From: Opitutia bacterium
Lineage (GTDB): Bacteria; Verrucomicrobiota; Verrucomicrobiia; Opitutales; T3Sed10-336
DNA: 14,623 bases
Assembly: GCA_050506795.1 (NCBI GenBank)
Contig: JBJHCF010000016.1
Location: 77,304-91,926, forward strand
Direction: 5' to 3'
Shown here: piece by piece, positions 1 through 14,623 of the stretch
Layout: each line of letters begins with the position of its first letter
How positions within the stretch are numbered: the first letter of the stretch is position 1
The notes under the pieces: model-generated
What the model saw: only the letters and a program-made list of their open reading frames with translations
Databases searched by the model: none
Told to the model about the DNA's origin: nothing
Made by a program: the position numbers and the translations under genes

Positions 1-728
1 GTGTAATTGCCCTGATCGGATCCACCGGAAATCGCGATGTCGGTTACGGCAACCGTTTTCCCTTCGCCCACTGAAGCGTCTGCAAACGCGGCGTCAAAAG
101 TGAACTCAAGCTCGTCGCCTTCGAGGCGGTCGTCATCGAACCCAACCCCAATCGCATCGGTGGTCCCGTCATAGACTTTGCTGTCAGCCGTGAAGCCACT
201 GAGCATCAATTCCCGGGCAGTGATGTCCGCCGTCAGGCCTTCCGGCTGGGTCAGCGAGTAGTTGCCGGCATCTTCGCCGGTCAACGTCAGCGACGCGGTC
301 ACCGCGATTGCTTCGCCCACTCCCGACTGCGCAAAACTCCCCGCGAGCGAATCGAACGAAACATCATCGTCGCCGACCACACCGTTTAGCTCCACTCCTG
401 TAATCGTCGCGACGGCGGTGCCGTCGTAAACTTTGTTTTCCGCTACCGCGCCACTCACCGTCAGCGCCTTCGCCGTGATATCGGCGGTCGCTTCACCGGT
501 CGTAGTCGCAAGGGTATAATTCCCCTGATCGGCTCCACCGGAAATCACGATGCTGGTTACATTAACCGCCTTGTCCTCTCCCGCCGCGGCGTCCGCGAAC
601 GCGGCGTCAAAGGTGAACTCAAGCTCGTCACCTTCGAGGCGGTCGTCGTTGAAACCCACTCCGGCCACATCCGTGGTCCCGTCGTAAATTTTGCCGTCCG
701 CCGTGAAGCCGCTGAGCATCAATTCCCG
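1..728 (-). repeat. Intragenic direct repeat of a YDG unit: 1-215 vs 514-728 (offset 513 bp = 171 codons), with a different YDG variant between them
   Basis: Shared blocks such as GCGGCGTCAAA.GTGAACTCAAGCTCGTC.CCTTCGAGGCGGTCGTC and GAGCATCAATTCCCG (201-215 and 714-728). Confidence 0.9.
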
Positions 729-3700
729 AGCCAGAATTTCAAAATCTGCGGACTGAAATGTGATGGCGTAGTTATCCCCAGCGGAAAGATTTCCCAAATT
801 CAGAGTATACAGCCCCGCATTTTCGCCTTCTTCGCGATCGAGCGCACCTGACAGAATCTCATCGGTTTCTTCATACACAAAACCGCTCGCAGAAAAGCTG
901 AAGGAAGGATCCTCCTCACCGTAATCCTTCGCCTGGCCGGAATCGGCAACAACAGTCAGCTCCGCCTTTACAATCGTCACAACCTGCTCCACCGGATCGG
1001 CTGGGGCGACGTCGTCGTTTCCGGATTGGGTCGCGGTCACCTTCGTCGAACCGGCCCTCAAAATAGTCGCCATATTGCCTTCGATACTGATCACATCCTC
1101 GTGTTCAGCGGTATAGGTGACCGTCAGACCTTCTGATGACGTTTCCGGGCCGAGCTGGAATTCGTCGTCGCCCCAGGTTTTGTGGGCAACCGGATCAAAA
1201 GCGATCTCCTGCAGAATAAAAAGCGTTGTAAAACGCCAGGTTCCGGACTCCCGGTCGAAGCCCTCAAACAAGTTGCCGGCATCGTCCATCACCGTTCCCT
1301 CGCTCATGGAAACCGTAATATCGGTGCCTGCCGTAAATGCATGATTCGGGTCGATCGTGAGGGTCAGCCTGTCGCCGGACAGAGACAGTTGATCCCTGTC
1401 GGAAGGATCGGAAAGTTCCAGAGAAATCACAGGAGTTGAATCCGAACCTTCATAAAAATTAATCCAACCGGCAGTTCCCGGAAAGACCGTTTCATCAAAC
1501 GTTATAACCAATTCCGTATCACGTATAATCCCGTCCGCATCGGGTTGCGGGTATAGTAAAACGAATTCAGGCTTTGTCCGGTCCGATTCGATTTCGAAAG
1601 TAACGGAAGCCACGTTGTCATTGCCGGCTGCATCTTGAGCCGAGCCCTGGGGAACATCTATGGTTACCGGCCCGTCGCCCTTGGGAACTACTGTTACGCT
1701 GAATTTGGTGTCGCCGTCATTACCGCTGAATCCGGAGAGCTGAGCGTTTTCGGCCACAATATCGCCTTGGGCAAAATTGAATACCGGCTGGTCAAAAGTT
1801 ATGGTTATATTAAAATCATCGGCGTTGGTCGGTCCGGATTCCTGGGAACTGATGGCTACCTGCGGTGGAGTCACATCGTAGGTAATCGCAAATTCACTGG
1901 AAGCCTCGTTTTGGTTTCCGGCAGCATCACTCAGAACGTTTTCGCTCAGTTGAATGCTGATCTGCCCTTCCTGCAGCGATTCGACGGTCAACACAAATTC
2001 GGGATTCGCCGCATCATCAATACCGGTAATCTGGCCGCCACTGATGACAAAATCCGCGGCGGATAGTCTACTGACCGGCTGACCGAAGATTTCGGTAACC
2101 GTCAGTGTAGCCTCGAAAGTTTCGGCGTTGGTTGGATCCTTTTCGCTGCTGGACAGCACCGCAGTTGGCCGGGTATCTCCAAATTCTATGGTAAAGTTCT
2201 CCTCATCAGCCTCATTGCTATTGCCGGCAAGGTCTGAAAATACCCCGGCGGGCACGCCCACTTCGATGACGGCGGATGAGATCGTCACCGGACCGGCGGC
2301 GATGGTTATGCTGAATTCAGTATGGTCGCCGGTCGAGAAACCCGTGGCCGAGCCGTTGGTTACACTCAACTTTGATTCGTCGAAGTCGGCGATCTCCTTG
2401 TCGAAGGTGATAACAACATCAAATTCTGTTTGGTTGGTCGGGTCGCTCAACCCTGCTGATCGCGCGATAGAGGTAATTGTTGGGGCGACCGCGTCCACCA
2501 ACACACCAACCGTGGAGCCCACGGAATTCAGCGATGTGTTCAGGTCGTTGCCCGCGGCATCGCGCAGAGTGCCGCCATTGGCGTCGATCGAGGCGGCGAC
2601 GGAAATGCCGTCGGTATCGTTATCTCCCGCCTGGACGGTATAACGAAACACCAGCGCTGAAGTGCCGCTGCCACTGAGGTAGCTGGCCTGCCGAGTGGTC
2701 GCGCCCACCGTCAGGGCGATTTGCGGCGTGCCGCCGGTGGTGTTCACGGTGACGTTCTGGTCGGTGTTGACGATAAAATCGAGATTCTGCCCGGCCACAT
2801 AGGTACCGTCGGCAGGCACGCTTACGCTGGTGACTGTCGGGGGAATACTTGCAACAGGTGAGGTGACCTGAATGTTATTGATACTGTGGTTTGTGGTACC
2901 ATCTCCAGCCCATCCAGCGTCGCTGATATAGATCCTTACATCATCTACATTAGAAAATGATTCGCTTAACGTTACTGTTATGGGAACATAATCCGCGGCA
3001 AAGCCATCGAATGTCATCGAAGCAACCTCGGTGCCGTCTCGATATCCTTTTATGGTATTGGTAAAAGATTCGGATTCTCCCCAGTTATAATAGGTAAACT
3101 GAATCAGGCGAAATTCACTGCCGTCTGCAGATTTCACAGACATCCCTTTTGTGCCTTCGTTGTTATTATCATACGTAAGCCCTGAATAATCCGGATCACC
3201 ACTGAAAAGAAAATCATGACCTTTCCAGTCAAGAGAATCCAAAAACGTCCCGTCCTCATCAGAGATATTGAAAATCTGGATATCAATATCATTGATGGAT
3301 TGGGAGCCTCCCTCACCATCTGATGCAATATTGTCACCTGTAATATCGGCGGAGTTCTTAGTGAATGTTAATGTGGGGCTGGTGCTTAAGTCTACTGATG
3401 GAGCCTCAGGATCCGGCGCTTCGGTACTGGCGTTTTTAATAGTAAACTCCACCAAATTGAACACATCGGGCGGGGTTTGGCTATTGGTTGTGAAGGTGAT
3501 TCGAAAGCGATCAATTTGAAGTCCCTCAAAAACAGAATAGTCTATGGGGTATCTGGTTTCTTCGTTATCGGATTGGCTGGTAAACGGAATAGTCTCGGCC
3601 ACAACCGTCTCACCCTGAAACCCCTGTACGATTACGTTTTGAAAACGGGCAACACTTACGCCATAGTCATACTCACCAATAAAAATATCCTCAACTTCAA

Positions 3701-4064
3701 ATCCTCCCAGATCAGAAGCCGGGTTTGGCGTAATCTCAAACCAATCGGTTTTCTCAATTCCCCCGGCTTGCGAATCACTCAGATACGCACCCCATTGATC
3801 AGCATTTATTCTATCAGGCCGTGAGGCATTCAGAATAAAAAAATTATCCGGGCTTATCCAGCGATCAGTTCCGTCATTCATATTACCATACCCGGTAAAA
3901 TCCTGTGTGGCATCGGGCAAAGCCTGCGCATTTACAGACTGTACGGAAACTAATGATAAGAGCATTGCCACGAATAGAGGTAGAATCTTATTCAAAAACC
4001 TGCCGGAATTCTTCTGTGGGAGTCTATGATTAATGCGCTCGATATGGGTTTCGAAGTGATTCAT
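1..4064 (-). CDS. Large secreted surface protein/adhesin (5' part, >1350 aa, continues beyond the left edge): two N-terminal beta-rich domains, several Ig-like repeats, an MBG-like domain and YDG repeats
   Basis: Manual translation from ATG at 4064 gives MNHFETHIERINHRLPQKNSGRFLNKILPLFVAMLLSLVSVQSVNAQA (signal-peptide-like). The frame matches the frame at position 1 (GSDQGNYT), and no stop was seen in the parts translated. Repeat motifs: DAAGN/DLAGN Ig-like units (~1225-2845), KDYGEEDPSFSF..GENAGLYTL MBG-like (~733-963), KVYDGT/KIYDGT YDG units (1-730). Confidence 0.9.
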   Translation of the reverse strand, partial: MNHFETHIERINHRLPQKNSGRFLNKILPLFVAMLLSLVSVQSVNAQALPDATQDFTGYGNMNDGTDRWISPDNFFILNASRPDRINADQWGAYLSDSQAGGIEKTDWFEITPNPASDLGGFEVEDIFIGEYDYGVSVARFQNVIVQGFQGETVVAETIPFTSQSDNEETRYPIDYSVFEGLQIDRFRITFTTNSQTPPDVFNLVEFTIKNASTEAPDPEAPSVDLSTSPTLTFTKNSADITGDNIASDGEGGSQSINDIDIQIFNISDEDGTFLDSLDWKGHDFLFSGDPDYSGLTYDNNNEGTKGMSVKSADGSEFRLIQFTYYNWGESESFTNTIKGYRDGTEVASMTFDGFAADYVPITVTLSESFSNVDDVRIYISDAGWAGDGTTNHSINNIQVTSPVASIPPTVTSVSVPADGTYVAGQNLDFIVNTDQNVTVNTTGGTPQIALTVGATTRQASYLSGSGTSALVFRYTVQAGDNDTDGISVAASIDANGGTLRDAAGNDLNTSLNSVGSTVGVLVDAVAPTITSIARSAGLSDPTNQTEFDVVITFDKEIADFDESKLSVTNGSATGFSTGDHTEFSITIAAGPVTISSAVIEVGVPAGVFSDLAGNSNEADEENFTIEFGDTRPTAVLSSSEKDPTNAETFEATLTVTEIFGQPVSRLSAADFVISGGQITGIDDAANPEFVLTVESLQEGQISIQLSENVLSDAAGNQNEASSEFAITYDVTPPQVAISSQESGPTNADDFNITITFDQPVFNFAQGDIVAENAQLSGFSGNDGDTKFSVTVVPKGDGPVTIDVPQGSAQDAAGNDNVASVTFEIESDRTKPEFVLLYPQPDADGIIRDTELVITFDETVFPGTAGWINFYEGSDSTPVISLELSDPSDRDQLSLSGDRLTLTIDPNHAFTAGTDITVSMSEGTVMDDAGNLFEGFDRESGTWRFTTLFILQEIAFDPVAHKTWGDDEFQLGPETSSEGLTVTYTAEHEDVISIEGNMATILRAGSTKVTATQSGNDDVAPADPVEQVVTIVKAELTVVADSGQAKDYGEEDPSFSFSASGFVYEETDEILSGALDREEGENAGLYTLNLGNLSAGDNYAITFQSADFEILARELMLSGFTADGKIYDGTTDVAGVGFNDDRLEGDELEFTFDAAFADAAAGEDKAVNVTSIVISGGADQGNYTLATTTGEATADITAKALTVSGAVAENKVYDGTAVATITGVELNGVVGDDDVSFDSLAGSFAQSGVGEAIAVTASLTLTGEDAGNYSLTQPEGLTADITARELMLSGFTADSKVYDGTTDAIGVGFDDDRLEGDELEFTFDAAFADASVGEGKTVAVTDIAISGGSDQGNY

Positions 4065-4248
4065 ATTCTTTTCTAAGTGGCTGGGCGTGATGGTTGAAGT
4101 ATCGACGGTTGTTGAAAACCTTTTCAGAGCTATAAAAGGGCCCTCACGAAGATGTGGCATAAACGCGATAATAGGACTTTGGTTTGCTCGCGTCTCCGTG
4201 GGGGAGCATGATACGGGCATCGTTTGAGAAAAGGTTGCGGCTCCGAAA

Positions 4249-5028
4249 TCACGAAAACCGCTTGGACCGACGCCTCCGAAGAAGCGTCCCTCCCAACATC
4301 AGGGCTCCGAGGAGCGCGGCATACGTGCCGGGCTCGGGAATGGCGTAAACGGCATTGGTGAAGAAATCGACTCCTTGGGCATGGTTTGCAAAGACGTCGT
4401 TCAGGAGGCCGATGCCCATGACCCGCCCACCGGGAAACGTCCTGACCACGGCGGCTTCGCCGTTGCCGAACTCGGCCAGGAGGTCACCCTCGCCCGGTTC
4501 CACGCTCAAGCCGAACGAGTACTCAAACCATCCCGGGCTTTGCAGGTCGATCGGTCCCCCTATCTCGTTCGGCGAGTTCAGGGACGGATCGATCACAGTC
4601 AAGGTATCCTGATTGAAATTACCTGTGTATTGAAATCCGAACTGCGCCGCCCGCTGATTGGCGATCGCCAGGTCGGCCGCGGCCGTCCAGTCCGCGTACA
4701 TCGCCCATCCTCCGGCGGCCGCGAACTGGGCCAGGGCGTCGATAGACGCATAGTTCGTGGAAGAGCCCTGAATAAAAAGGATTCCCAGGTCGTAGTCGCC
4801 GGAGCCAATTTTCTGGGCGAAGGCGGCGTCGCTGGTCGCCGTTGTGATGGAGTCAAACTGCGCGGACGTAGCCAGCCCGTCGAGAGCCGCTGCCATGGCG
4901 TCATCGCCAATCACTTGGTCCGTCCAATACAAAATCGATGTTTCGGCCGGGAGGCTCGGCTGCAGGAACAGCAACAGCGTCAGCACTGAAAGCGTGTGAA
5001 TTCGTTTGATTTTTCTGATTTTGAGCAT
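4249..5028 (-). CDS. PEP-CTERM sorting-domain surface protein (259 aa)
   Basis: C-terminus IPEPGTYAALLGALMLGGTLLRRRRSKRFS (PEP + TM helix + Arg cluster). The ATG at 5028 gives a signal-peptide-like N-terminus MLKIRKIKRIHTLSVLTLLLFLQPSLPA. Confidence 0.92.
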   Translation of the reverse strand: MLKIRKIKRIHTLSVLTLLLFLQPSLPAETSILYWTDQVIGDDAMAAALDGLATSAQFDSITTATSDAAFAQKIGSGDYDLGILFIQGSSTNYASIDALAQFAAAGGWAMYADWTAAADLAIANQRAAQFGFQYTGNFNQDTLTVIDPSLNSPNEIGGPIDLQSPGWFEYSFGLSVEPGEGDLLAEFGNGEAAVVRTFPGGRVMGIGLLNDVFANHAQGVDFFTNAVYAIPEPGTYAALLGALMLGGTLLRRRRSKRFS

Positions 5029-5220
5029 TTTAGGAAAAAATTTACAGTGATGTGACGGGGAGGATACGCACGTCTCATTGGAGTGTATCGCAGCGTTATT
5101 ACGATACCGCCATTCGGGTTCGAACAGGAAGTGCATGACTACCAACGTTCCCAGGACCTGAGACCCATTCCAAACGGCTGAAAGGCGCGTCCTTAACAGA
5201 GCCCAAGGAGTAATCTATCT

Positions 5221-5962: not shown

Positions 5963-6164
5963 GGCTGAACGACCTGAAGGCTTGAAAAATGGATCTTCGC
6001 AATTCGCGGTAGGCTCCAAAGCAGTGACTTCCTGGAAGTTGCGCCCCCGGAATTGTCCGGCTGAAGCACGGACCTACGCGAAAGGACCATTATCGAGTAG
6101 TGCCGTGCTTCAGCCGGCCCATGAAAGCCACACCAAACAGCGAGGCATCTGAAATAATCACGCA

Positions 6165-7710: not shown

Positions 7711-7775
7711 GAAGTAGCGCACGCATCTTGCGTGTGTGCGGTTTTCGGTCGCACGCAAGATGCGTGCACTACTTC
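7711..7775. repeat. REPIN: inverted pair of GTAG-type REPs between convergent genes
   Basis: GTAGCGCACGCATCTTGCGTG (7714-7734), 17-bp spacer, CACGCAAGATGCGTGCACTAC (7752-7772). Flanks GAA/TTC extend the inverted repeat. Confidence 0.9.
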
Positions 7776-7791
7776 CAGCCAATCCCTCAAC

Positions 7792-7809
7792 TGAGTGCCG
7801 TTGCACTCA
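7792..7809. terminator. Small hairpin between convergent genes, possible terminator
   Basis: TGAGTGC-CGTT-GCACTCA, 20 nt downstream of the M48 stop. There is no clear U-tract. Confidence 0.3.
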
Positions 7810-7828
7810 ACACGTTGTTATTATTTCC

Positions 7829-8575
7829 TTACGGCACCCTCACAATTGGTTGATCTCCAGGGACCTCGGCCAACCGGGCTTTTCTTTCCTTCCAGTCGGG
7901 CATGTGGCGACTGAGCAGGCGATAGAAGGCGGGGCTGTGGTTGTGGATCTTGAGGTGGCAGAGTTCGTGAACGATGACGTAATCAATGCAATGCCGGGGC
8001 GCTTTGATTAATTCGAGATTGAGAGAAATCGTTCCCAGCGGAGAGCAGGTGCCCCAGGCCCGCTTCATGGTCCGGATCTGGAAGCGGAGGGTTCTCGGTC
8101 TCAGCGACGGGGCGGTTTCCAATAATCGTTCAATTTGTTCGCGAAATACACGTTCGGCCCGCGAACGATACCATCCGTTGAGGGCCGTAGCGACCTTGCG
8201 CGGGTTATCCGGCGCGGGTGTGCCAACCTGGAAATAACCGCCGGAGAGCTTCACTTCCGTCCGCTCCGCCTTTTGCACCCGGAGCCGATATTGGCGCCCG
8301 AGGTAGAGATGGGTCTCTCCCGAAACATAGCGCCGGGGTTCGGGCGCCGGAAGGTATTGCTCAAAATGTCGGCGTTGCCGGATGATCCACTTGCGCCGCC
8401 TGTGCAGATGCGCGATGACTTCATCGACCGACCGCCCGGCCGGGGCGATAGCCGTCACGGAACGGTCGGGATGCACAGAGAGGCTCAGTCGCTTGCGGTC
8501 GCCAAAGGACACCGCCACGGGAATCGTCTCGCCGCCGTAGGCGAGATGTACCGTTGTACGAAATTCGTTAGTCAT
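7829..8575 (-). CDS. M48/SprT-like YgjP (DUF45) zinc metallopeptidase-family protein, typical hsdR neighbour (248 aa)
   Basis: YVSGETHLYLGRQYRL, MKRAWGTCS, IDYVIVHELCHL (HExxH) and NHSPAFYRLL..MPDW. Confidence 0.92.
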   Translation of the reverse strand: MTNEFRTTVHLAYGGETIPVAVSFGDRKRLSLSVHPDRSVTAIAPAGRSVDEVIAHLHRRRKWIIRQRRHFEQYLPAPEPRRYVSGETHLYLGRQYRLRVQKAERTEVKLSGGYFQVGTPAPDNPRKVATALNGWYRSRAERVFREQIERLLETAPSLRPRTLRFQIRTMKRAWGTCSPLGTISLNLELIKAPRHCIDYVIVHELCHLKIHNHSPAFYRLLSRHMPDWKERKARLAEVPGDQPIVRVP

Positions 8576-8732
8576 GGATGGGAATGAGGCGCAGCCCAAA
8601 GTAGTGCACGCTTCCAGCGTGCGAAATCAATCTCGCGTGCACGCTTCCAGCGTGCGAATACGGCGGATGCACGCTGGCCCGCGACGAGCTCGGCCGAGTC
8701 GAAGCGTGCGCTACTACGATAAATTCACCCAT
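8568..8732 (-). other. REP-encoded mini-ORF (54 aa) bridging hsdR stop and M48 start; translation unproven
   Basis: ATG at 8732 overlaps the hsdR end (ATGGGTGA). TAA at 8568 overlaps the M48 start (ATGACTAA). Peptide MGEFIVVAHASTRPSSSRASVHPPYSHAGSVH... Confidence 0.35.
8601..8714. repeat. REP cluster between hsdR and M48 gene
   Basis: Intact forward REP 8601-8621. GTAG-less forward copy 8637-8655. Reverse REP 8670-8714 split by a 24-bp insertion. Confidence 0.88.
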
Positions 8733-11700
8733 AACGGCTTCTCGCGATTTCGAGGACTTTTTCCAGGATGGCGTCGATTTCTTCGAAGGTGAGCGCCACA
8801 TCCCGTTCTTCCTTCAACTCGAACAGATAGTCTTCGATGGCGCCCATCATCCGGTTCTGCACGTCGGTGTTGTCGGTCCAGTTGACGATACGGTTTTGCC
8901 GGATGATCTCATCGATCGCCAGACTGGCCTCCGTGCTGACCGGACGCGGGTCGAACTCGTCGTCGCCGTAATCGGCGAAGACTTCCTGCAGGATGCCAAA
9001 AAACGCCTTGGCCACATCGTGCCCGACCAAATCGGGAGGGATGTCGTCGCCGGTCCGATTGCGCACCTTCTCCGCGATTTCGGTGACTTTGCGCAGGTAC
9101 TCCGCGTCGGAGAGCCGCTGTTCGCGAAAGGCGCGGATGGCGTCTTCCAGCATCTCCGAGAACCGGCGGTAAAAGGCCGGGTCCTCCTGCATGCGATCGT
9201 GAATCGTCCGCTTGGTGCGGTGGGCGATGGTGTCGGCCTTGGAGGCGGTGCCTTCCAGCTTTTCGACCTCTTTGGCAAACGCGTCGGCGTCGAAGATGTT
9301 CACGAGATTCGTGATCGTCTCGATCTCCCCGGTCCCCACGTGTTGATCGACCAGCTTCTGAATCCGCGCCTCGTACTCCCGGAAATCGACCACCTCGGCG
9401 TAACGCTTGCGCACCGACGTCCGCAGTTGCATGAAGAACCGGAGATCCTCTTTGTACTTCTCCAGTTTCTTTTCCGGCGTGTTTTCGAGAAACGAGCTTG
9501 CAGACAACGCGATGCCGAGCGTCCGGGAGTAGGCGCTGAGGCGTTCGTAGAACTTCTCCCGCAAGACCTCGTCGGCCAACAGGCGTTCGTAAGCCTCCTC
9601 GTCGCCCTTGTTCCGGACGGTCTTAAAGACCTCCCAGAGATCCGAATGCCTCTGGGGCAGTTTACGGACCTCGGTGGAAACGTCGTTCAGGGCAGTACAC
9701 AGGTCGTCGAGTCCGTCCTGGTCGAACTCCGAAAGCCGGCCGTAGATGTCCAGCGCCTCGTCGAGGTTCTGCAGGACGCCCCGGTAGTCGATGATATAAC
9801 CGAAATCCTTCCCGTCGCACAGCCGGTTCACCCGGGCAATGGCCTGGAGCAGCGTGTGGCCCGTCAATTTTCGAGTGAGGTAGAGAACCGTGTTGCGGGG
9901 CGCGTCGAACCCGGTCAGGAGTTTGTCCACCACGATGATGATCTCCGGCTCCTCGCCGTGTTTGAAACCGCTGATCAATTGACGGTTGTATTCCCTTTCG
10001 CTCCCGTACCGCGCGATCATCTTTCTCCAGAACGCCTTGACCTCGTCCTGCGATTCCTCGTGAACGTCCTCCTCCCCCTCCCGTTCATCCGGACCGGAAA
10101 TCAGCACCTCGCTTTTCACCAAACCGAACTCGTCGAAGAAATGCTTGTAAAGCAGGGCGGTCGCCTTGTCCTGGGCGACGAGCTGGGCCTTGTAGGGGGT
10201 TCCCTGCCAGTTGTCGCGAAAGTGTTCCCCTACGTCCCAAGCGATCCGCATGACCTTCTGCTTGGCCTTGTTCAACTGGTCGGTGGACGCGAACTTCTTC
10301 TTCAGGTCGGCCTTCTGCTCCTTCGAAAGCGTCTCCGTGATGCGCTCGAACCAGGCATCGATCGACTCCGTATCCACCCGCTGGTCCACGTGACGCCCTT
10401 CGTAGAGGAGCGGGACGACGGCCTTGTCCTTGACCGCCTGTTCGATCGTGTAGGTGTCGATCAGGCCGCCGAAGCGTTCGATGGTGTTCTTTTCCTTTTT
10501 CAACACCGGGGTGCCGGTGAAGCCGATAAAGCACGCGTTCGGCAGCGCCTTCTTCATCTTCGCGTGCAACTCGCCGTACTGGCCCCGGTGGCTTTCATCG
10601 ACGAGGACGAAGATGTCCGGATTGTCGTCGCGCACCCCGGTTTTGCCCACCGCCAGCTCGAATTTGTCGATCACCGAAGTGATGATCCGCGCCTTTCCGT
10701 CCTGCAGGAGGGTCGCCAGATGCCGGCCCGTTTTCGCCTGCACCGGGAGCGTGCCGCAGTGATGGAAGGTCTTGTAGATCTGGTCGTCCAGGTCCACCCG
10801 GTCGGTCACCAGGATGATTTTATAATTGTCGATGCCGCCCTCCAGGGCGATCGCCTCGGCCAGCATCACCATGGTCAGACTCTTTCCGCTCCCCTGGGTG
10901 TGCCAGACCACGCCGCCGAGCCGCGTGCCGTCGCTCTGTGTCCGACGGATGCGATCCATGATCCGGGTCACGCAAAAATACTGCTGGTAGCGGGCAATTT
11001 TCTTTTCGCCCGCGTCGAAGAGAATGAACCGGAACGTCAGCTCCAGCAGCCGTTCCGGACGGCACAACGCGTACAACGTCCGGTCCTGCTCCGTAACCTG
11101 CCGTTCCAGCCGTCCGTAGGCCGCCCGCTCCTCCTTCAATATCAGATCGCGGTGAGCGAACAACCGGTCGATCTGCTCCTCGGTGAGCGGCAGGCTGACC
11201 AGTTCCTTGAGGTGGCTTTCACCCTCTTCCGAGAAATCCTCCTTCCAGACCGCCCAAAACTTCGCCGGTGTGCCCACCGTGGCATACTTCGCCGCGTTCT
11301 TGGCAACGGCGAGGAGTATCTGGGCGTAATGGAACAAACGCGGAATCTGGTCCCGCTGCTGGTTGCGAACGTGCTGGCTGACCGCCTGGCCGATCGGATC
11401 CTTCGCGTCCGGACGCTTGCACTCGATCACCGCCAGGGGAATGCCGTTGACAAACAACACCAGGTCCGGACGCCGCGTCTCGTGACTCCCGCTCCGTTCG
11501 ACGACAAACTCCTCCGTAACGTGAAACGCGTTCCTCTCCGGATGCCGCCAGTCGATCGATTGCGGCAGCGCCTTCCCGAGAGTCAACAAATCATAGACCT
11601 TTTCATTGGTCGGAATCAGGCCGTCATCCGCCACGTCCTTCAACGCCTGCACCGCCGCCAAAATGTTTCCCTCGCTGAAAGGATAGGTTCCGCCTTTGTA

Positions 11701-11883
11701 GCGGATGGTGTTGATCGTCCGAAGCCGCTCCGCCAACACCCCCTCCAGCAACACCCCCGCCAATCGACCCCCACGGGCATTGAGAGCCTCCTCCGGACTC
11801 AAGTAAGTGTACCCCAGCTTCTGCAACAGCTCCAACGCCGGAACCTGCGAGATGTTGTCTTCCTTGAACGAGGGAGTCTTCAT
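8725..11883 (-). CDS. hsdR: Type I restriction endonuclease subunit R (1052 aa)
   Basis: Nuclease motif RPDLVLFVNGIPLAVIECK, Walker A HTQGSGKS, DESH box, FTGTP, LLTGFDAP and QAIARVNR. GGAGG lies 6 nt upstream of ATG 11883 (MKTPSFKED). Confidence 0.97.
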   Translation of the reverse strand: MKTPSFKEDNISQVPALELLQKLGYTYLSPEEALNARGGRLAGVLLEGVLAERLRTINTIRYKGGTYPFSEGNILAAVQALKDVADDGLIPTNEKVYDLLTLGKALPQSIDWRHPERNAFHVTEEFVVERSGSHETRRPDLVLFVNGIPLAVIECKRPDAKDPIGQAVSQHVRNQQRDQIPRLFHYAQILLAVAKNAAKYATVGTPAKFWAVWKEDFSEEGESHLKELVSLPLTEEQIDRLFAHRDLILKEERAAYGRLERQVTEQDRTLYALCRPERLLELTFRFILFDAGEKKIARYQQYFCVTRIMDRIRRTQSDGTRLGGVVWHTQGSGKSLTMVMLAEAIALEGGIDNYKIILVTDRVDLDDQIYKTFHHCGTLPVQAKTGRHLATLLQDGKARIITSVIDKFELAVGKTGVRDDNPDIFVLVDESHRGQYGELHAKMKKALPNACFIGFTGTPVLKKEKNTIERFGGLIDTYTIEQAVKDKAVVPLLYEGRHVDQRVDTESIDAWFERITETLSKEQKADLKKKFASTDQLNKAKQKVMRIAWDVGEHFRDNWQGTPYKAQLVAQDKATALLYKHFFDEFGLVKSEVLISGPDEREGEEDVHEESQDEVKAFWRKMIARYGSEREYNRQLISGFKHGEEPEIIIVVDKLLTGFDAPRNTVLYLTRKLTGHTLLQAIARVNRLCDGKDFGYIIDYRGVLQNLDEALDIYGRLSEFDQDGLDDLCTALNDVSTEVRKLPQRHSDLWEVFKTVRNKGDEEAYERLLADEVLREKFYERLSAYSRTLGIALSASSFLENTPEKKLEKYKEDLRFFMQLRTSVRKRYAEVVDFREYEARIQKLVDQHVGTGEIETITNLVNIFDADAFAKEVEKLEGTASKADTIAHRTKRTIHDRMQEDPAFYRRFSEMLEDAIRAFREQRLSDAEYLRKVTEIAEKVRNRTGDDIPPDLVGHDVAKAFFGILQEVFADYGDDEFDPRPVSTEASLAIDEIIRQNRIVNWTDNTDVQNRMMGAIEDYLFELKEERDVALTFEEIDAILEKVLEIARSRYG

Positions 11884-12083
11884 AGCGTGCCTCCATCCCC
11901 CGCCGAACTCACGCCCGAAGTAGCGCACGCATCTTGCGTGCCACTATTCCATACAGACCTCACGCCCGGAGTAGTGCACGCTTCCAGCGTGCGTATGCCT
12001 CCATTCCATACAAGACTCACGCTGGAAGCGTGAACTACTTCTGAAACCATCCTTCTTTCAAGATTCCTCATAACGATCTCCAT
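11880..12083 (-). other. REP-encoded mini-ORF (up to 67 aa) between RAYT stop and hsdR start; translation unproven
   Basis: Begins 5 nt after the RAYT TAG (alternative ATGs at 12071 with upstream GGAG, and at 12050). Reads VVHASSV..TLEACTT..TQDACAT. Its TGA overlaps the hsdR ATG (ATGA). Confidence 0.4.
11884..12038. repeat. REP cluster 3' of RAYT
   Basis: Half REP AGCGTGC (11884-11890), forward REPs 11920-11940 and 11971-11991 (51-bp period), reverse REP 12018-12038. Confidence 0.92.
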
Positions 12084-12088
12084 CACGC

Positions 12089-12832
12089 CTACGGCACAAT
12101 CACGGGAAGGCCCGCCTTTTTCGGGTTGTCGAGAATATATCGCGACAGGTGAAACAGCTCGCCGGGCGAACGGACGAGGTGATCGTACGATTCCCGTTGC
12201 CAAAGCTCGCCGGAACGTCCTTCGCGTTTGTTGATTTCATTGGAAGTGTAGGACTTCCAGGAGTGCAAAATGGCTTTGGGCTTGTACGGTTCAATCGCCT
12301 GGAAAATCACGTGCACGTGATTCGGCATGACCACCCATTCGCCGAGATGATACCGTTTTCCCGAAAAGAACCCGAGCGCATCCGCCACGACCCTCCCGTT
12401 TTCAGGCTCCCCGATAAGACACGATCCCATGCCGGCATCGAGCCACTCATGAAGGCGGTCGGGAAAACGTTCGGCATACTCCGCCCATTGCTCGTCGGTA
12501 CGCGGTTCCGGATTTCGCTTCAACCACTCCTCCCGCTCCGCCATCCATACCCGCAACTTCTCCCGCGGAATCGAATCCCCGAGCCGAAACGTAACGAAGT
12601 AAGTCGCCCCATCCTGATACCAGTGAGGAAGACGACGCCTCGAAACATCGATAGGAGCTCGCGGATCAAAAAAAGTAGTGCACGCTTCCAGCGTGCGACC
12701 CCTCCCCCCAGAACTCGCGCCCGAAGTAGCGCACGCATCCTGCGTGCGTACACTCCCTACGGAACTCACGCTGGAAGCGTGAGCTACTTTATCGCCCACC
12801 GGCCGATCCGCAGTTTTCGAACGAGCCATCAT
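12089..12832 (-). CDS. REP-associated tyrosine transposase (RAYT/TnpA-REP, Y1 HUH superfamily), 247 aa with a REP-derived N-terminal extension
   Basis: RRRLPHW, YFVTFRL, HUH motif VVMPNHVH, SWKSYTS, LWQRESYDHLVR and catalytic-Tyr helix YILDNP. Flanked on both sides by GTAG REPs. ATG 12832 overlaps the dprA-like TGA (ATGA). Confidence 0.93.
   Translation of the reverse strand: MMARSKTADRPVGDKVAHASSVSSVGSVRTQDACATSGASSGGRGRTLEACTTFFDPRAPIDVSRRRLPHWYQDGATYFVTFRLGDSIPREKLRVWMAEREEWLKRNPEPRTDEQWAEYAERFPDRLHEWLDAGMGSCLIGEPENGRVVADALGFFSGKRYHLGEWVVMPNHVHVIFQAIEPYKPKAILHSWKSYTSNEINKREGRSGELWQRESYDHLVRSPGELFHLSRYILDNPKKAGLPVIVP
12675..12787. repeat. REP cluster inside the 5' end of the RAYT ORF
   Basis: Forward REPs 12675-12695 and 12726-12746 (51-bp period), reverse REP 12767-12787. 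Translates as VAHASSV..TQDACAT..TLEACTT. Confidence 0.92.
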
Positions 12833-14259
12833 TTTCGCGCCACGTACTTTTGAGGTTTCCTCGTTTTCTCGACCAATCCGTCCTCGCAAAGCCGATCGAG
12901 CCAACGCTTGAGCACAATGCCTGAAACCCCGGATTCTTCCGATAGCTCCTTCAACGAACGGGGAACAGACAACGCCTTCAACAACACAAGCCCAACAGCC
13001 CGGAAAATGGCATCCTCCAACCCAACCGAACCGGCGTCGACTTTCTCCGCCGCCGTCTTCCCAGCACCCGACGTGTCAACCTCGGGAATTCCTTCGGACG
13101 GCTCCAGAGTGGCCTCCGTCACCCGCATATCCGTAAACAAGCTCACCTGATACGGTACGGGCTCGCTCATCCGTTGAGTTTCGGCCTCCGCTTCGAGACA
13201 ATCCTTCAGCTTCTCGGATGAAAGATCCGCCGGCCAAACGCGCGCTCCCACTTCGATCAACTTCCGATTCCCCTCCGGCATGGGATCCTCCCCCCGCACG
13301 TACACGGGACAAAAACGCAACCGGCGCAATTGCTCATCCGCCCCGGCCCACGTACCGCCCTTCTTATGTTCGACACACATGACCAATCCCGCCTGAGCCA
13401 AAGCGTAGATGTATTTGTTTCGCTGCATCGCGTTCCCCACGTTAAAGCCCGCCGCCGGATCGAACGGAGACAGCAGGAGGAGCTTTCGGTCTCGAATCGC
13501 CTCCCGGCTCCAGGCCGCCACCGCCGCCCGCGCCAGACTGTCAGCCAACACCCCGACCGCCGCTCCCCCGGCTTCAAGTGCCCCTTCCATCGCGGCGCTG
13601 TCAATCCCGCGCGCTCCACCCGAAACAATCGTTACGCCGGCCTCCGCCGCCATTCGCCCGACCTCACGGGTCGCCTCGAGTAGCGCATCGCTCGCTTTTC
13701 GCGAACCGACCACCGCGAGACCTCCGTTTTCGGCAATCGAAGGTTCACCGCATCCGTACAGGATGGGCGGGGCGTTTTCTCTCAGCTTGGACTTGATCCC
13801 CTTCGGGTAGGCGGGATCCGCCCGGCTGACCACCCATATCGAACGCGACTGCCACGCGTTTACGGCCTGACTCAACTGGAAACCTCGGGAAAGGAGCGTT
13901 TCCAGGCGCTTCGGATCAAAATGACTTTTCCACCGTTGCAGCAAATCCGACGCGGAGTCCCCCAGAAAGTCCGCCGGCCCCAATCCCGCGTCCCGCAGCA
14001 GCCGCGCAAGCTGGTTATACTCCTTCGGTTTCAATAAAGCGGCCTCTGATCGGTCGCCCTTCTTTACAATCAGAGGCGCCGTCAGGAGAAGAATTGCTTT
14101 TGCGTTGTCGGACAGTATCAAAGTAGAACACGCATCCTGCGTGTGTCTATTTCGACAACTCACGCTGGAAGCGTGAGCTACATTAAACGGAAGTCTCGAC
14201 CGCATACTGCGGCACGCATCCTCCGCTCGGAAAGCCAAACCATTTCCAACATCTTCCAT
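12829..14259 (-). CDS. dprA: DprA/Smf-like (SLOG fold) DNA-binding protein with C-terminal winged helix; non-canonical, probably defence-associated clade
   Basis: SRADPAYP..APPILYGCG, LAVVGSR, VSGGARGID, AMQRNKYIYALA and GGTW. C-terminal SLKELSEESGVSGIVLKRWLDRLCEDGLVEK. ATG 14259 overlaps the upstream TAA (TAATG). An alternative TTG start at 14121 lies directly after the REPIN. Confidence 0.88.
   Translation of the reverse strand: MEDVGNGLAFRAEDACRSMRSRLPFNVAHASSVSCRNRHTQDACSTLILSDNAKAILLLTAPLIVKKGDRSEAALLKPKEYNQLARLLRDAGLGPADFLGDSASDLLQRWKSHFDPKRLETLLSRGFQLSQAVNAWQSRSIWVVSRADPAYPKGIKSKLRENAPPILYGCGEPSIAENGGLAVVGSRKASDALLEATREVGRMAAEAGVTIVSGGARGIDSAAMEGALEAGGAAVGVLADSLARAAVAAWSREAIRDRKLLLLSPFDPAAGFNVGNAMQRNKYIYALAQAGLVMCVEHKKGGTWAGADEQLRRLRFCPVYVRGEDPMPEGNRKLIEVGARVWPADLSSEKLKDCLEAEAETQRMSEPVPYQVSLFTDMRVTEATLEPSEGIPEVDTSGAGKTAAEKVDAGSVGLEDAIFRAVGLVLLKALSVPRSLKELSEESGVSGIVLKRWLDRLCEDGLVEKTRKPQKYVARK
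14123..14181. repeat. REPIN inside the 5' end of the dprA-like ORF
   Basis: GTAGAACACGCATCCTGCGTG (14123-14143), 17 bp, CACGCTGGAAGCGTGAGCTAC (14161-14181). A degenerate fragment GCACGCATCCT lies at 14212-14222. Confidence 0.9.
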
Positions 14260-14496
14260 TACACCTGATCCTCCGCCCCTATACTGAGATCCACCAAGAA
14301 AACGTGGACGGTTATATTTCGCCCCTCATCGGCGTCCGATCGGATCGTTGCCCGCCATTCGTGAGAATGCCCGGACTTTTCCCACCGAACAAAACCGGGA
14401 TGAGCCTCAATAAAGCCAGCCAAATCGCCCTGTAGCTTAGAAAACTTCTTGTTCGCCTTATTCCAGAAAATGAGCGCTGCACGAGTATCCCGCCAC
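14259..14496 (-). pseudogene. 3' fragment of a conserved hypothetical (possibly restriction-endonuclease-fold) gene, apparently interrupted
   Basis: WRDTRAALIFWNKANKKFS..HPGF..EWRATIRSDADEGRNITVHVFLVDL resembles, from memory, the C-terminus of a family with ECKFW..IDQLLxYLxWRDTKAA. The resemblance stops abruptly just upstream of WRDT. Confidence 0.5.
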
Positions 14497-14623
14497 CACT
14501 GCTGTCCAGTTAAGTTCAGTTTCAAAACTCGTAAGTGATTGATATTATGCCTAATGCGATTGGAGAAGCATGTGACGCATCTGAAACTCGCATTCCCGGA
14601 ATGGGTCATGATTGCACACCCGG
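14497..14623. mobile_element. Probable terminal end of an insertion sequence (IS4-family-like), continuing beyond the window
   Basis: Begins CACTGCTGTCCAGTTAAGTT, resembling IS4-family (DUF4372-type) terminal IRs as I recall them. It is followed by AT-rich GTAAGTGATTGATATT and coincides with the point where the protein resemblance ends. The second IR, target duplication and transposase are not visible. Confidence 0.45.

Follow-up and report, generated by a model that had tools for sequence, protein, structure and literature searches.

REP saturation around a RAYT gene in a decaying type I restriction-modification island of an Opitutia bacterium

The host role of REP-associated tyrosine transposases (RAYTs) and of repetitive extragenic palindromic (REP) sequences is an open question, and in the current view RAYTs stay put. 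The window analysed here, a stretch of 14,623 nucleotides from an Opitutia bacterium (contig JBJHCF010000016.1, positions 77,304 to 91,926), raises the question of how a RAYT gene and a dense series of REPs came to occupy the gene junctions of a type I restriction-modification (R-M) operon. The original prediction, made from the letters of the window alone, proposed a composite module in which the RAYT would either reshuffle REP-bounded gene cassettes or act with a DprA-like protein as an accessory arm of the R-M system targeting single-stranded DNA. We found that the arrangement is real, specific, and recurring, and that it is a REPtron variant in an ordinary, decaying R-M island. REP saturation of the island is about 85-fold over the genome average, around a RAYT of an apparently mobile lineage, and the pattern recurs in related genomes. 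A local, frame-preserving colonisation of the island by REPs through the resident RAYT would be a moderately probable explanation. REPs that only colonise would make this a case of repeat survival inside coupled operons; an additional exchange of genes would point to a new route to defence-island variation. The locus allows direct tests, having a defined enzyme, a defined REP, REP-flush start codons, and predicted linker peptides.

One REP family at the junctions of a decaying island

Profile matches bore out the gene order read earlier from the open reading frames, with a DprA-like gene (psyrA, see below), a Y1_Tnp transposase gene (the RAYT), hsdR, and a YgjP/M48 metallopeptidase gene following one another on the minus strand. 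The window stops inside an insertion sequence (IS) at the end of its contig (C16) and covers only half of the operon; its genome (G000; 4.94 Mb in 82 contigs, 59% GC) is 98% complete but broken at the IS. The other half, on contig C63, comprises an hsdS-like gene, SoFic, a DUF6036 pair, hsdM, hsdS, and the 5′ part of PDC-S54, a candidate defence gene. We consider the window and C63 to be one island because PDC-S54 is split between them (PADLOC profile positions 1–341 on C63, at 16912–17943, and 338–407 in the window, at 14259–14496 on the minus strand), because both halves adjoin ends of a multi-copy IS, and because a 9-bp target duplication marks the break. The duplication (14488–14496) precedes the IS end (14497–14623), and this IS splits the gene and breaks the assembly. 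A second copy of the IS, between contigs C45 and C28, likewise has a 9-bp duplication, and PDC-S54 is unbroken in G006, a genome of the same family but another genus. The full order is hsdS-like, SoFic, DUF6036 and its partner, hsdM, hsdS, PDC-S54, psyrA, RAYT, hsdR, and M48, which brings hsdM, hsdS, and hsdR together in one locus; these three genes stand in the same order in G006. The type I subunits are not all intact: hsdS has a stop at codon 110, and HsdR (8725–11883, minus strand, identified by profile matches) lacks 12 residues in the N-terminal nuclease region that all six of the closest relatives shown possess. The separate one-domain hsdS-like gene is an open frame. With the nonsense codon, the HsdR deletion, and the IS in PDC-S54, the island is partly decayed.

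The REP family follows the pattern GTAG-NN-CACGC-WTCYW-GCGTG, in which GTAG stands two bases before a 7-bp stem. Copies in the window start at 7714/7752, 8601 (with a degenerate copy at 8634), 11920/11971/12018, 12675/12726/12767, and 14123/14161, and all five clusters fold, with z from −4.6 to −9.7. One family had been placed at five gene boundaries; the five clusters stand, but the sequence at 11884 is only half a REP and the first whole copy there begins at 11920. This half REP (11884–11890, plus strand, 3′ arm only) is flush with the hsdR start codon and begins a direct repeat (D4) with 12690–12771. The inverted doublet at 7714–7772 (z −9.7) marks the island's right border and separates M48 from a convergent HlyIII-family gene, and a doublet stands at the matching place in G006. 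The triplet downstream of the RAYT (11920–12038) and its spacers are a 79% direct repeat of the upstream triplet (12675–12787), which by pattern, folding, and translation lies inside the RAYT frame and is read as VAHASSV ... TQDACAT ... TLEACTT. The doublet at 14123–14181 lies inside the psyrA leader frame and has an orthologous doublet in G006. The absence of REPs from the left 7.7 kb of the window holds for this family; a doublet of a different family lies there, at 6057/6097.

Genome-wide, the family counts 75 copies in 42 clusters. Because the reversed genome yields no copy and because the window holds five of the 42 clusters within 6.9 kb (0.06 expected, p 4e-9), it is not a product of chance. 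The enrichment that had been proposed as a check is stronger still for the whole island, with 11 of the 42 clusters within 15.6 kb against 0.13 expected (p 1e-18). Counting both borders, every one of the 11 gene gaps of the island carries a cluster, and the sole REP-free junction is the overlap inside the DUF6036 gene pair. Beyond the left border of the island, the next 9.4 kb contain three further clusters. The two other REP families of G000 (137 and 14 clusters), which lie beside the genome's two other RAYTs, contribute none to the island. The repeats follow the rule for RAYT-associated REPs taken from the methods of PMC6006769 as far as its text was available (GT[AG]G, stem of at least 7 pairs): GT[AG]G stands 0–2 nt before a hairpin within 1 kb of the gene, with inverted doublets and copies throughout the genome.

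Neighbourhood counts, based on the best 80 of 325 RAYT relatives and the best 80 of at least 369 hsdR relatives, place this REP within 400 nt of 35 of the 80 RAYTs and in none of the 80 hsdR loci, and on this ground the RAYT is the likely cognate enzyme. By these counts the REP travels with the RAYT, not with the hsd backbone. We also considered whether hsd loci of this family are generally studded with REPs, and rejected this reading: any 13-mer recurs in three separate places in only 3 of the 80 hsdR loci, and none has four or more GTAG/GTGG hairpins. Among 10 wider loci of the order (of 13 other matches, 3 left out), two have a 14-mer in at least three separate places, and none of the 10 has a RAYT.

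The REP clusters appear to be accommodated in reading frames. In each of the six gaps between hsdM and M48, a frame opens no more than 10 nt from the stop of the preceding gene; it is either continuous with the following gene (psyrA, RAYT) or terminates at that gene's start. In five of the gaps the frame crosses the REP cluster, and in the sixth the doublet sits in the end of hsdS. The four upstream gaps are without such bridging frames and likely hold promoters. The clusters at 12675–12787 and 14123–14181 lie inside frames from the coupled ATGs at 12832 and 14259, the frame 12086–11880 spans the triplet downstream of the RAYT and ends on the hsdR start, and another frame (8568–8732, minus strand), opened by an ATG within the final codons of hsdR, passes through the cluster at 8601–8720 and reaches the M48 start, an arrangement that G006 repeats with a different and longer cluster in between. 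Every crossing frame reads its first REP as VxHAS, the same frame as in relatives of the RAYT embedded in other proteins. With REPs fixed and spacers shuffled, read-through is found at 6 of 10 junctions in G000 against 1.9 expected (P 6e-4), and at 8 of 15 with G006 added against 2.1 expected (P 1e-5). Bridging frames persist in G006 over clusters of different length (372 vs 199 nt and 245 vs 149 nt). We regard translated read-through across REP clusters as suggestive, because we adjusted the criterion once the junctions had been inspected and because G000 and G006 are related genomes.

A RAYT of an apparently mobile lineage

The RAYT gene (12089–12832, minus strand) encodes an HUH/Y1 transposase that matches PF01797 above the cut-off (E 3e-7) and has its NHVH, WQ, and YILDNP motifs intact, with NHVH at residues 171–174 and Y232 in YILDNP at a spacing of 60. 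Its best match in the PDB is 4ER8 (E 0.007), with which both motifs align. The NCBIfam profile REP_Tyr_transpos (NF047646) reaches 69 bits, below its cut-off of 80, and covers the C-terminal part only, which we attribute to an insertion of about 55 residues. The overlap of the start codon (ATG 12832) with the psyrA stop (TGA 12831–12829) was read correctly in the original prediction as ATGA, and the frames support its view of the RAYT as a coupled operon member. The core of the RAYT begins at 12673, behind a leader of 53 residues, and no ATG lies between the REP and the core. On both sides the gene is flanked by a REP cluster with spacers, the 79% direct repeat described above.

These features resemble the REPtron or REPIN-RAYT of E. 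coli TnpA-REP (4ER8) in the HUH–Y spacing of 60, the WQ motif, GTAG two bases before a 7-bp stem, inverted doublets, flanking REPs, a genome-wide REP family, and one repeat family per RAYT. In contrast to the REPtron, the RAYT here has no ATG of its own, the REPs saturate the whole operon and not only the flanks, and relatives lie in frame inside many host proteins, with hosts changing on the tree. By motifs, and not by subclass profile, the nearest class is Quentin subclass 2.7: NHVH and WQ fit its [ND]HVH and WQ, and YILDNP is one place off YI[LR][NQ]NP. That subclass has a variable, long N-terminus and long canonical REPs, whereas the REP here is a short hairpin.

Relatives of this RAYT are very often found in frame inside long proteins, beside REP-coded peptides such as VAQASSL and KQDACAT. 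We identified 1126 proteins of 343–2000 residues that match the RAYT at E≤1e-30; among the best 120, the HUH motif is kept in 120 and the Y motif in 114, more than 100 host residues lie on both sides in 108, and REP-type peptides adjoin the RAYT domain in 108. A host domain was found in 27 of 31 RAYT-bearing frames scanned (chosen from 51 long ones), belonging to type IIG R-M enzymes (10), B12 radical SAM proteins (7), exonuclease VII (3), and EcoEI-type HsdR (2), with a helicase, a Fic protein, a GNAT protein, ValRS, and LeuRS as single cases. In a quick tree built from 138 rows, 31 changes (minimum 17, shuffled mean 88) are needed for the host labels, which were assigned by hand from Pfam lists; the domain is stable in XseA (1) and DinG (2) and scattered in the type IIG hosts (9, of which 5 are forced by strong branches). 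The RAYT of the window pairs there with a stand-alone copy (SH-aLRT 94), and it fits the in-frame lineage in having no ATG between REP and core and in its 79% flanking direct repeat. Its nearest relatives come from records of Opitutales or Puniceicoccaceae, and the very nearest sits among unrelated genes. The marks of a domesticated RAYT, a fixed locus and vertical inheritance, were not found, and no match at E≤1e-20 was found in two genomes of the same genus (67% and 92% complete). From these data the RAYT lineage is apparently mobile. RAYTs have been described as non-jumping and vertically inherited (PMC5581495; bioRxiv 2021.07.10.451892), and Bertels and Rainey, in the accessible text of the latter, state that evidence for RAYTs moving themselves is lacking.

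In-frame REPs in genes, notably of Opitutus terrae, and GTAG arrays flanking Thauera exopolysaccharide genes have been reported (PMC3733652), as have in-frame REPs inside tnpA-REP genes of subclass 2.4 (PMC6006769). The repeats of Di Nocera et al. 2013 and Quentin et al. 2018 thus resemble the present ones in the tolerance of in-frame REPs and in REP arrays round one gene cluster; unlike here, the accessible text of these two papers describes no defence island, stop-start-coupling frames, or whole RAYT domains in hosts. The picocyanobacterial tnpA-REP genes with prochlorosin genes (Laurenceau et al.) are alike in the proposal that TnpA-REP diversifies neighbouring genes, a role that was proposed and then qualified (bioRxiv 2020.03.09.984088, as far as its text was available). 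In the open-access literature, supplements aside, we found no published account of REP-saturated defence islands, translated REP bridges, or whole RAYT domains in host proteins.

Several loci were noted alongside these results. At L106:9201-9812, a RAYT that is unrelated (26% identity) and contains translated repeats lies directly upstream of an hsdR 79% identical to the one studied here, so that two RAYT types have landed in one slot. In G010, of the same family as the window's genome, a RAYT-like segment shares one frame with HsdR, followed by M48 (L209:586-3690). Close relatives of the RAYT were also seen by eye inside an apparent type III CRISPR-Cas locus and, separately, beside a type III R-M pair (L101:7720-8301 and L208:7907-8713). 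The second REP family of G000, to which the window's doublet at 6057–6122 belongs (332 copies under a looser pattern), flanks the RAYT of contig C27, which has an internal stop.

Colonisation, cassettes, or import

The comparison of related genomes supports the recurrence of RAYT-bearing, REP-dense type I R-M islands in the order, as judged from their gene content and repeats. Five genomes, namely G095, G197, G211, and G074 of another family and G066 of a third, have a different HsdR with a RAYT in frame, followed by M48. Around this HsdR::RAYT, G095 concentrates 23 of the 81 copies of its own REP in 80 kb (1.5 expected), G197 has 15 of 105 in 75 kb (1.75 expected), and G211 has 12 of 67 in 60 kb (0.8 expected); these three genomes belong to one genus, and the windows were placed after the REP positions had been seen. 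The cargo differs, with CBASS and Hachiman in G197 and Lamassu in G095. The island in G006 is orthologous to that of G000 (68–86% nucleotide identity), lies among different neighbours, and has REPs at 7 of 9 comparable gaps, with 12 of the 27 copies in the genome on the two island contigs. Its hsdS (L199:6511-7104) is half-size and single-domain, compared with the interrupted two-domain hsdS of G000. Gene order is kept between G000 and G006 despite identities of only 0.33–0.75 at fourfold sites.

We consider that local colonisation would account for this picture as follows. The RAYT might have arrived as a REP-RAYT-REP unit of the lineage that lands in frame, borrowing the ATG at the psyrA stop, with psyrA as ordinary cargo whose toxin gene was lost. 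It would nick its own REPs by analogy with E. coli TnpA-REP, which cuts and rejoins single-stranded REPs in a GTAG-dependent manner (PMC8266576, in its available text, which demonstrates cleavage of REPs and strand transfer by three enzymes). Acting mainly near its own gene, it could produce a halo of REPs that spills onto neighbouring non-defence junctions, and selection for translational coupling could have filtered the insertions, so that survivors within the operon would be found only where ribosomes read through. Colonisation is favoured because junctions carrying a REP in G000 are REP-free between the same gene pairs elsewhere, namely the junction of the zinc-ribbon and RtcB genes in G006 and that of the TPR and acyl-CoA dehydrogenase genes in G002, G009, and G006. 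It is likewise favoured because G006 has an overlapping hsdS–PDC-S54 junction where G000 has a REP doublet, with gene order unchanged. Several observations weigh against it. The halo is one-sided, this REP being absent from the 7.7 kb to the left of M48; at the other two RAYTs in G000, repeats are confined to the flanks (one of the two stands at a contig end); and many of the 80 RAYT loci are without distant REP clusters. G006 has a REP-studded island and no match to this RAYT or to psyrA, the stretch expected to hold them being unassembled. The halo windows of G095, G197, and G211 were, as stated, chosen with the REP positions in view, and the read-through criterion was set after the data had been seen, its end window being widened once (from +14 to +20) for hsdM–hsdS of G006; the G000 and G006 junctions are not independent, and the shuffle probability reaches 0.75 at one of the six. 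Finally, the REP-flush starts of psyrA, the RAYT core, and hsdR fit recombination at REPs equally well.

Those starts lead to the reading in which REP doublets are recombination sites and the RAYT, or homologous recombination, moves REP-bounded genes in frame, which would make the island an integron-like defence array; we regard it as possible but rather unlikely. Its boldest form, about which we are equally doubtful, would have a mobile RAYT lineage for which REP doublets serve as recombination sites that preserve the frame: landing in frame in operons and in proteins, it would convert the surrounding defence island into a cassette array with genes such as psyrA joined at REP feet and translationally coupled via REP-coded linkers, an HUH-driven analogue of integrons. 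A single base separates a REP foot from the conserved part of psyrA, at a point where Met stands in relatives, and the gene that normally precedes psyrA is missing; the RAYT core and hsdR begin flush with REP sequence; and the direct repeat of REP clusters around the RAYT is seen in embedded relatives as well. The single REP-free junction of the island falls inside the overlapping DUF6036 pair, REP clusters stand at both island borders while the neighbours differ between G000 and G006, and within the REP halo of G197 and G095 two block pairs are in swapped order and psyrA occupies different places, being REP-bounded in G095. On breakpoints at REPs, which had been proposed as a check, the evidence is divided: the REP-flush starts and the swapped blocks point one way, but of 72 block ends, counted without 11 rows from a gene with internal repeats, only 3 come within 5 nt of a REP. 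The unchanged gene order of G000 and G006 at such low fourfold-site identity also argues against shuffling, as do cargo turnover in REP-free versions of the operon, the reordering of flanking genes in relatives at junctions without this REP, and the loss of PsyrT elsewhere by internal deletion and not at REPs. Contigs of two sequencing runs (X1, which may be the source of this DNA, and X2) speak neither for nor against excision: the joints they offered have a short side of only 21–81 letters and fall for the most part within hsdR or between copies of the REP. Such joints often represent repeats or other organisms, and X2 consists of scattered low-depth pieces.

Whole import of the island from a donor with this REP at most junctions, which would make the density a relic and local activity unneeded, appears improbable to us. 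REP positions are orthologous between G000 and G006, hence many predate their split or a transfer, the flanks differ in the two genomes, and hsdM of this type was found at >90% identity in only 2 of 12 genomes of the family. However, three junctions next to the island have REPs too, and two of these are REP-free in relatives; the REP family is present in G009 and G011, where the island was not found; and matching gaps of G000 and G006 hold clusters of different content, which indicates REP turnover in place. A functional single-stranded-DNA arm of the R-M system, formed by the RAYT and the DprA-like protein, is very improbable. The two genes are coupled in one operon, one DprA-RAYT fusion (P0108) occurs among the 120 longer relatives listed, and psyrA lies 11–24 kb from HsdR::RAYT in G197 and G095 and directly upstream of hsdR in G005. 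The expected co-occurrence was nevertheless not conserved: PsyrA matches in none of the 80 RAYT loci, of which one has a weak match to this HsdR; a RAYT stands in one of the 80 hsdR loci (divergent, 26% identity) and a short PsyrA match in another; no RAYT occurs within 1.5 kb in the 12 PsyrA loci; and neither was found in the 10 wider hsdR loci of the order. We accordingly rejected RAYT, DprA, and HsdR as a conserved module. The DprA-like protein is an orphan PsyrA, already described as an antitoxin (bioRxiv 2022.05.11.491447, in its accessible text), DprA is one among a dozen or more host types, its fusion has a REP-like peptide at the join, and the R-M genes here are damaged.

The orphan psyrA, the hsd backbone, and the surroundings

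PsyrTA is a toxin-antitoxin defence pair with a DprA-like antitoxin (Millman et al., bioRxiv 2022.05.11.491447, as far as its text was available). The psyrA gene of the window (12829–14259, minus strand) matches the PsyrA profile end to end (PADLOC PDLC03927, E 1.5e-125, positions 3–396 of 398), and a housekeeping DprA was ruled out by TIGR00732, which scores 92 bits, below its cut-off of 191. The frame starts at ATG 14259, overlapping the PDC-S54 stop; the conserved part begins at 14121 with TTG, and no ATG follows the REP. A search of 301 genomes of the order found PsyrA in 13, among them G000. In 10 of the 12 others PsyrT stands directly upstream, G005 has a stub, and G095 has an internal deletion, where psyrT is a 33-codon frame joining the first and last residues (L315:7620-7720). 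Here, unlike in PsyrTA/RqlHI, the start position holds a TTG beside a REP, the gene upstream is PDC-S54, and PsyrT was not found elsewhere in the genome, the best match to a PsyrT query being a RecQ-like gene (34% over residues 24–391 only). Since the toxin is reduced or gone in G005, G095, and G000, the orphan antitoxin is a recurring decay state.

The hsd operon itself follows a backbone of hsdS-like, hsdM, hsdS, hsdR, and M48 with variable cargo, which relatives exchange without REPs. It shares this backbone and its cargo kinds with type I R-M operons that have cargo slots (hsdS-like, hsdM, cargo, hsdS, cargo, hsdR, M48), and it differs from them in its REP family and RAYT, as the counts above indicate. 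Among the 80 hsdR loci, M48 occurs in 67, Fic in 10, PDC-S54 in 6, and DUF6036 in 3; these gene counts are lower bounds because the loci span 2 to 23 kb. The M48 gene of the window (7829–8575, minus strand; Pfam PF01863, E 9e-61) is the usual last gene of this operon type.

No empty site was recovered for the island, and relatives offered nothing usable that matches the flanks of the G006 copy. In G009 and G011 a different gene follows the HlyIII-family gene, and no exact island border can be drawn because homology there stops 23–36 nt before the REP. Left of the island on C63 (L001:1-9451) lie a YefM/YoeB-like pair (by eye), a PIN pair, and zinc-ribbon membrane, RtcB, LuxR-TPR, TPR, and acyl-CoA dehydrogenase genes. 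These genes recur in relatives (L220-L227) in other orders and beside the HlyIII-family gene, so the site is a variable hotspot even without R-M genes. At L001:8137-8209, L001:15389-15449, and window 8660–8717, the REP loop is replaced by an insert of 40–50 nt that is common to these copies and to G006, possibly a second small element that inserts into REP loops. At the far left of the window, a large repetitive surface protein (3–4220) runs past the window's end and is followed by a small protein with a PEP-CTERM-like tail (4249–5145), both recognised by eye.

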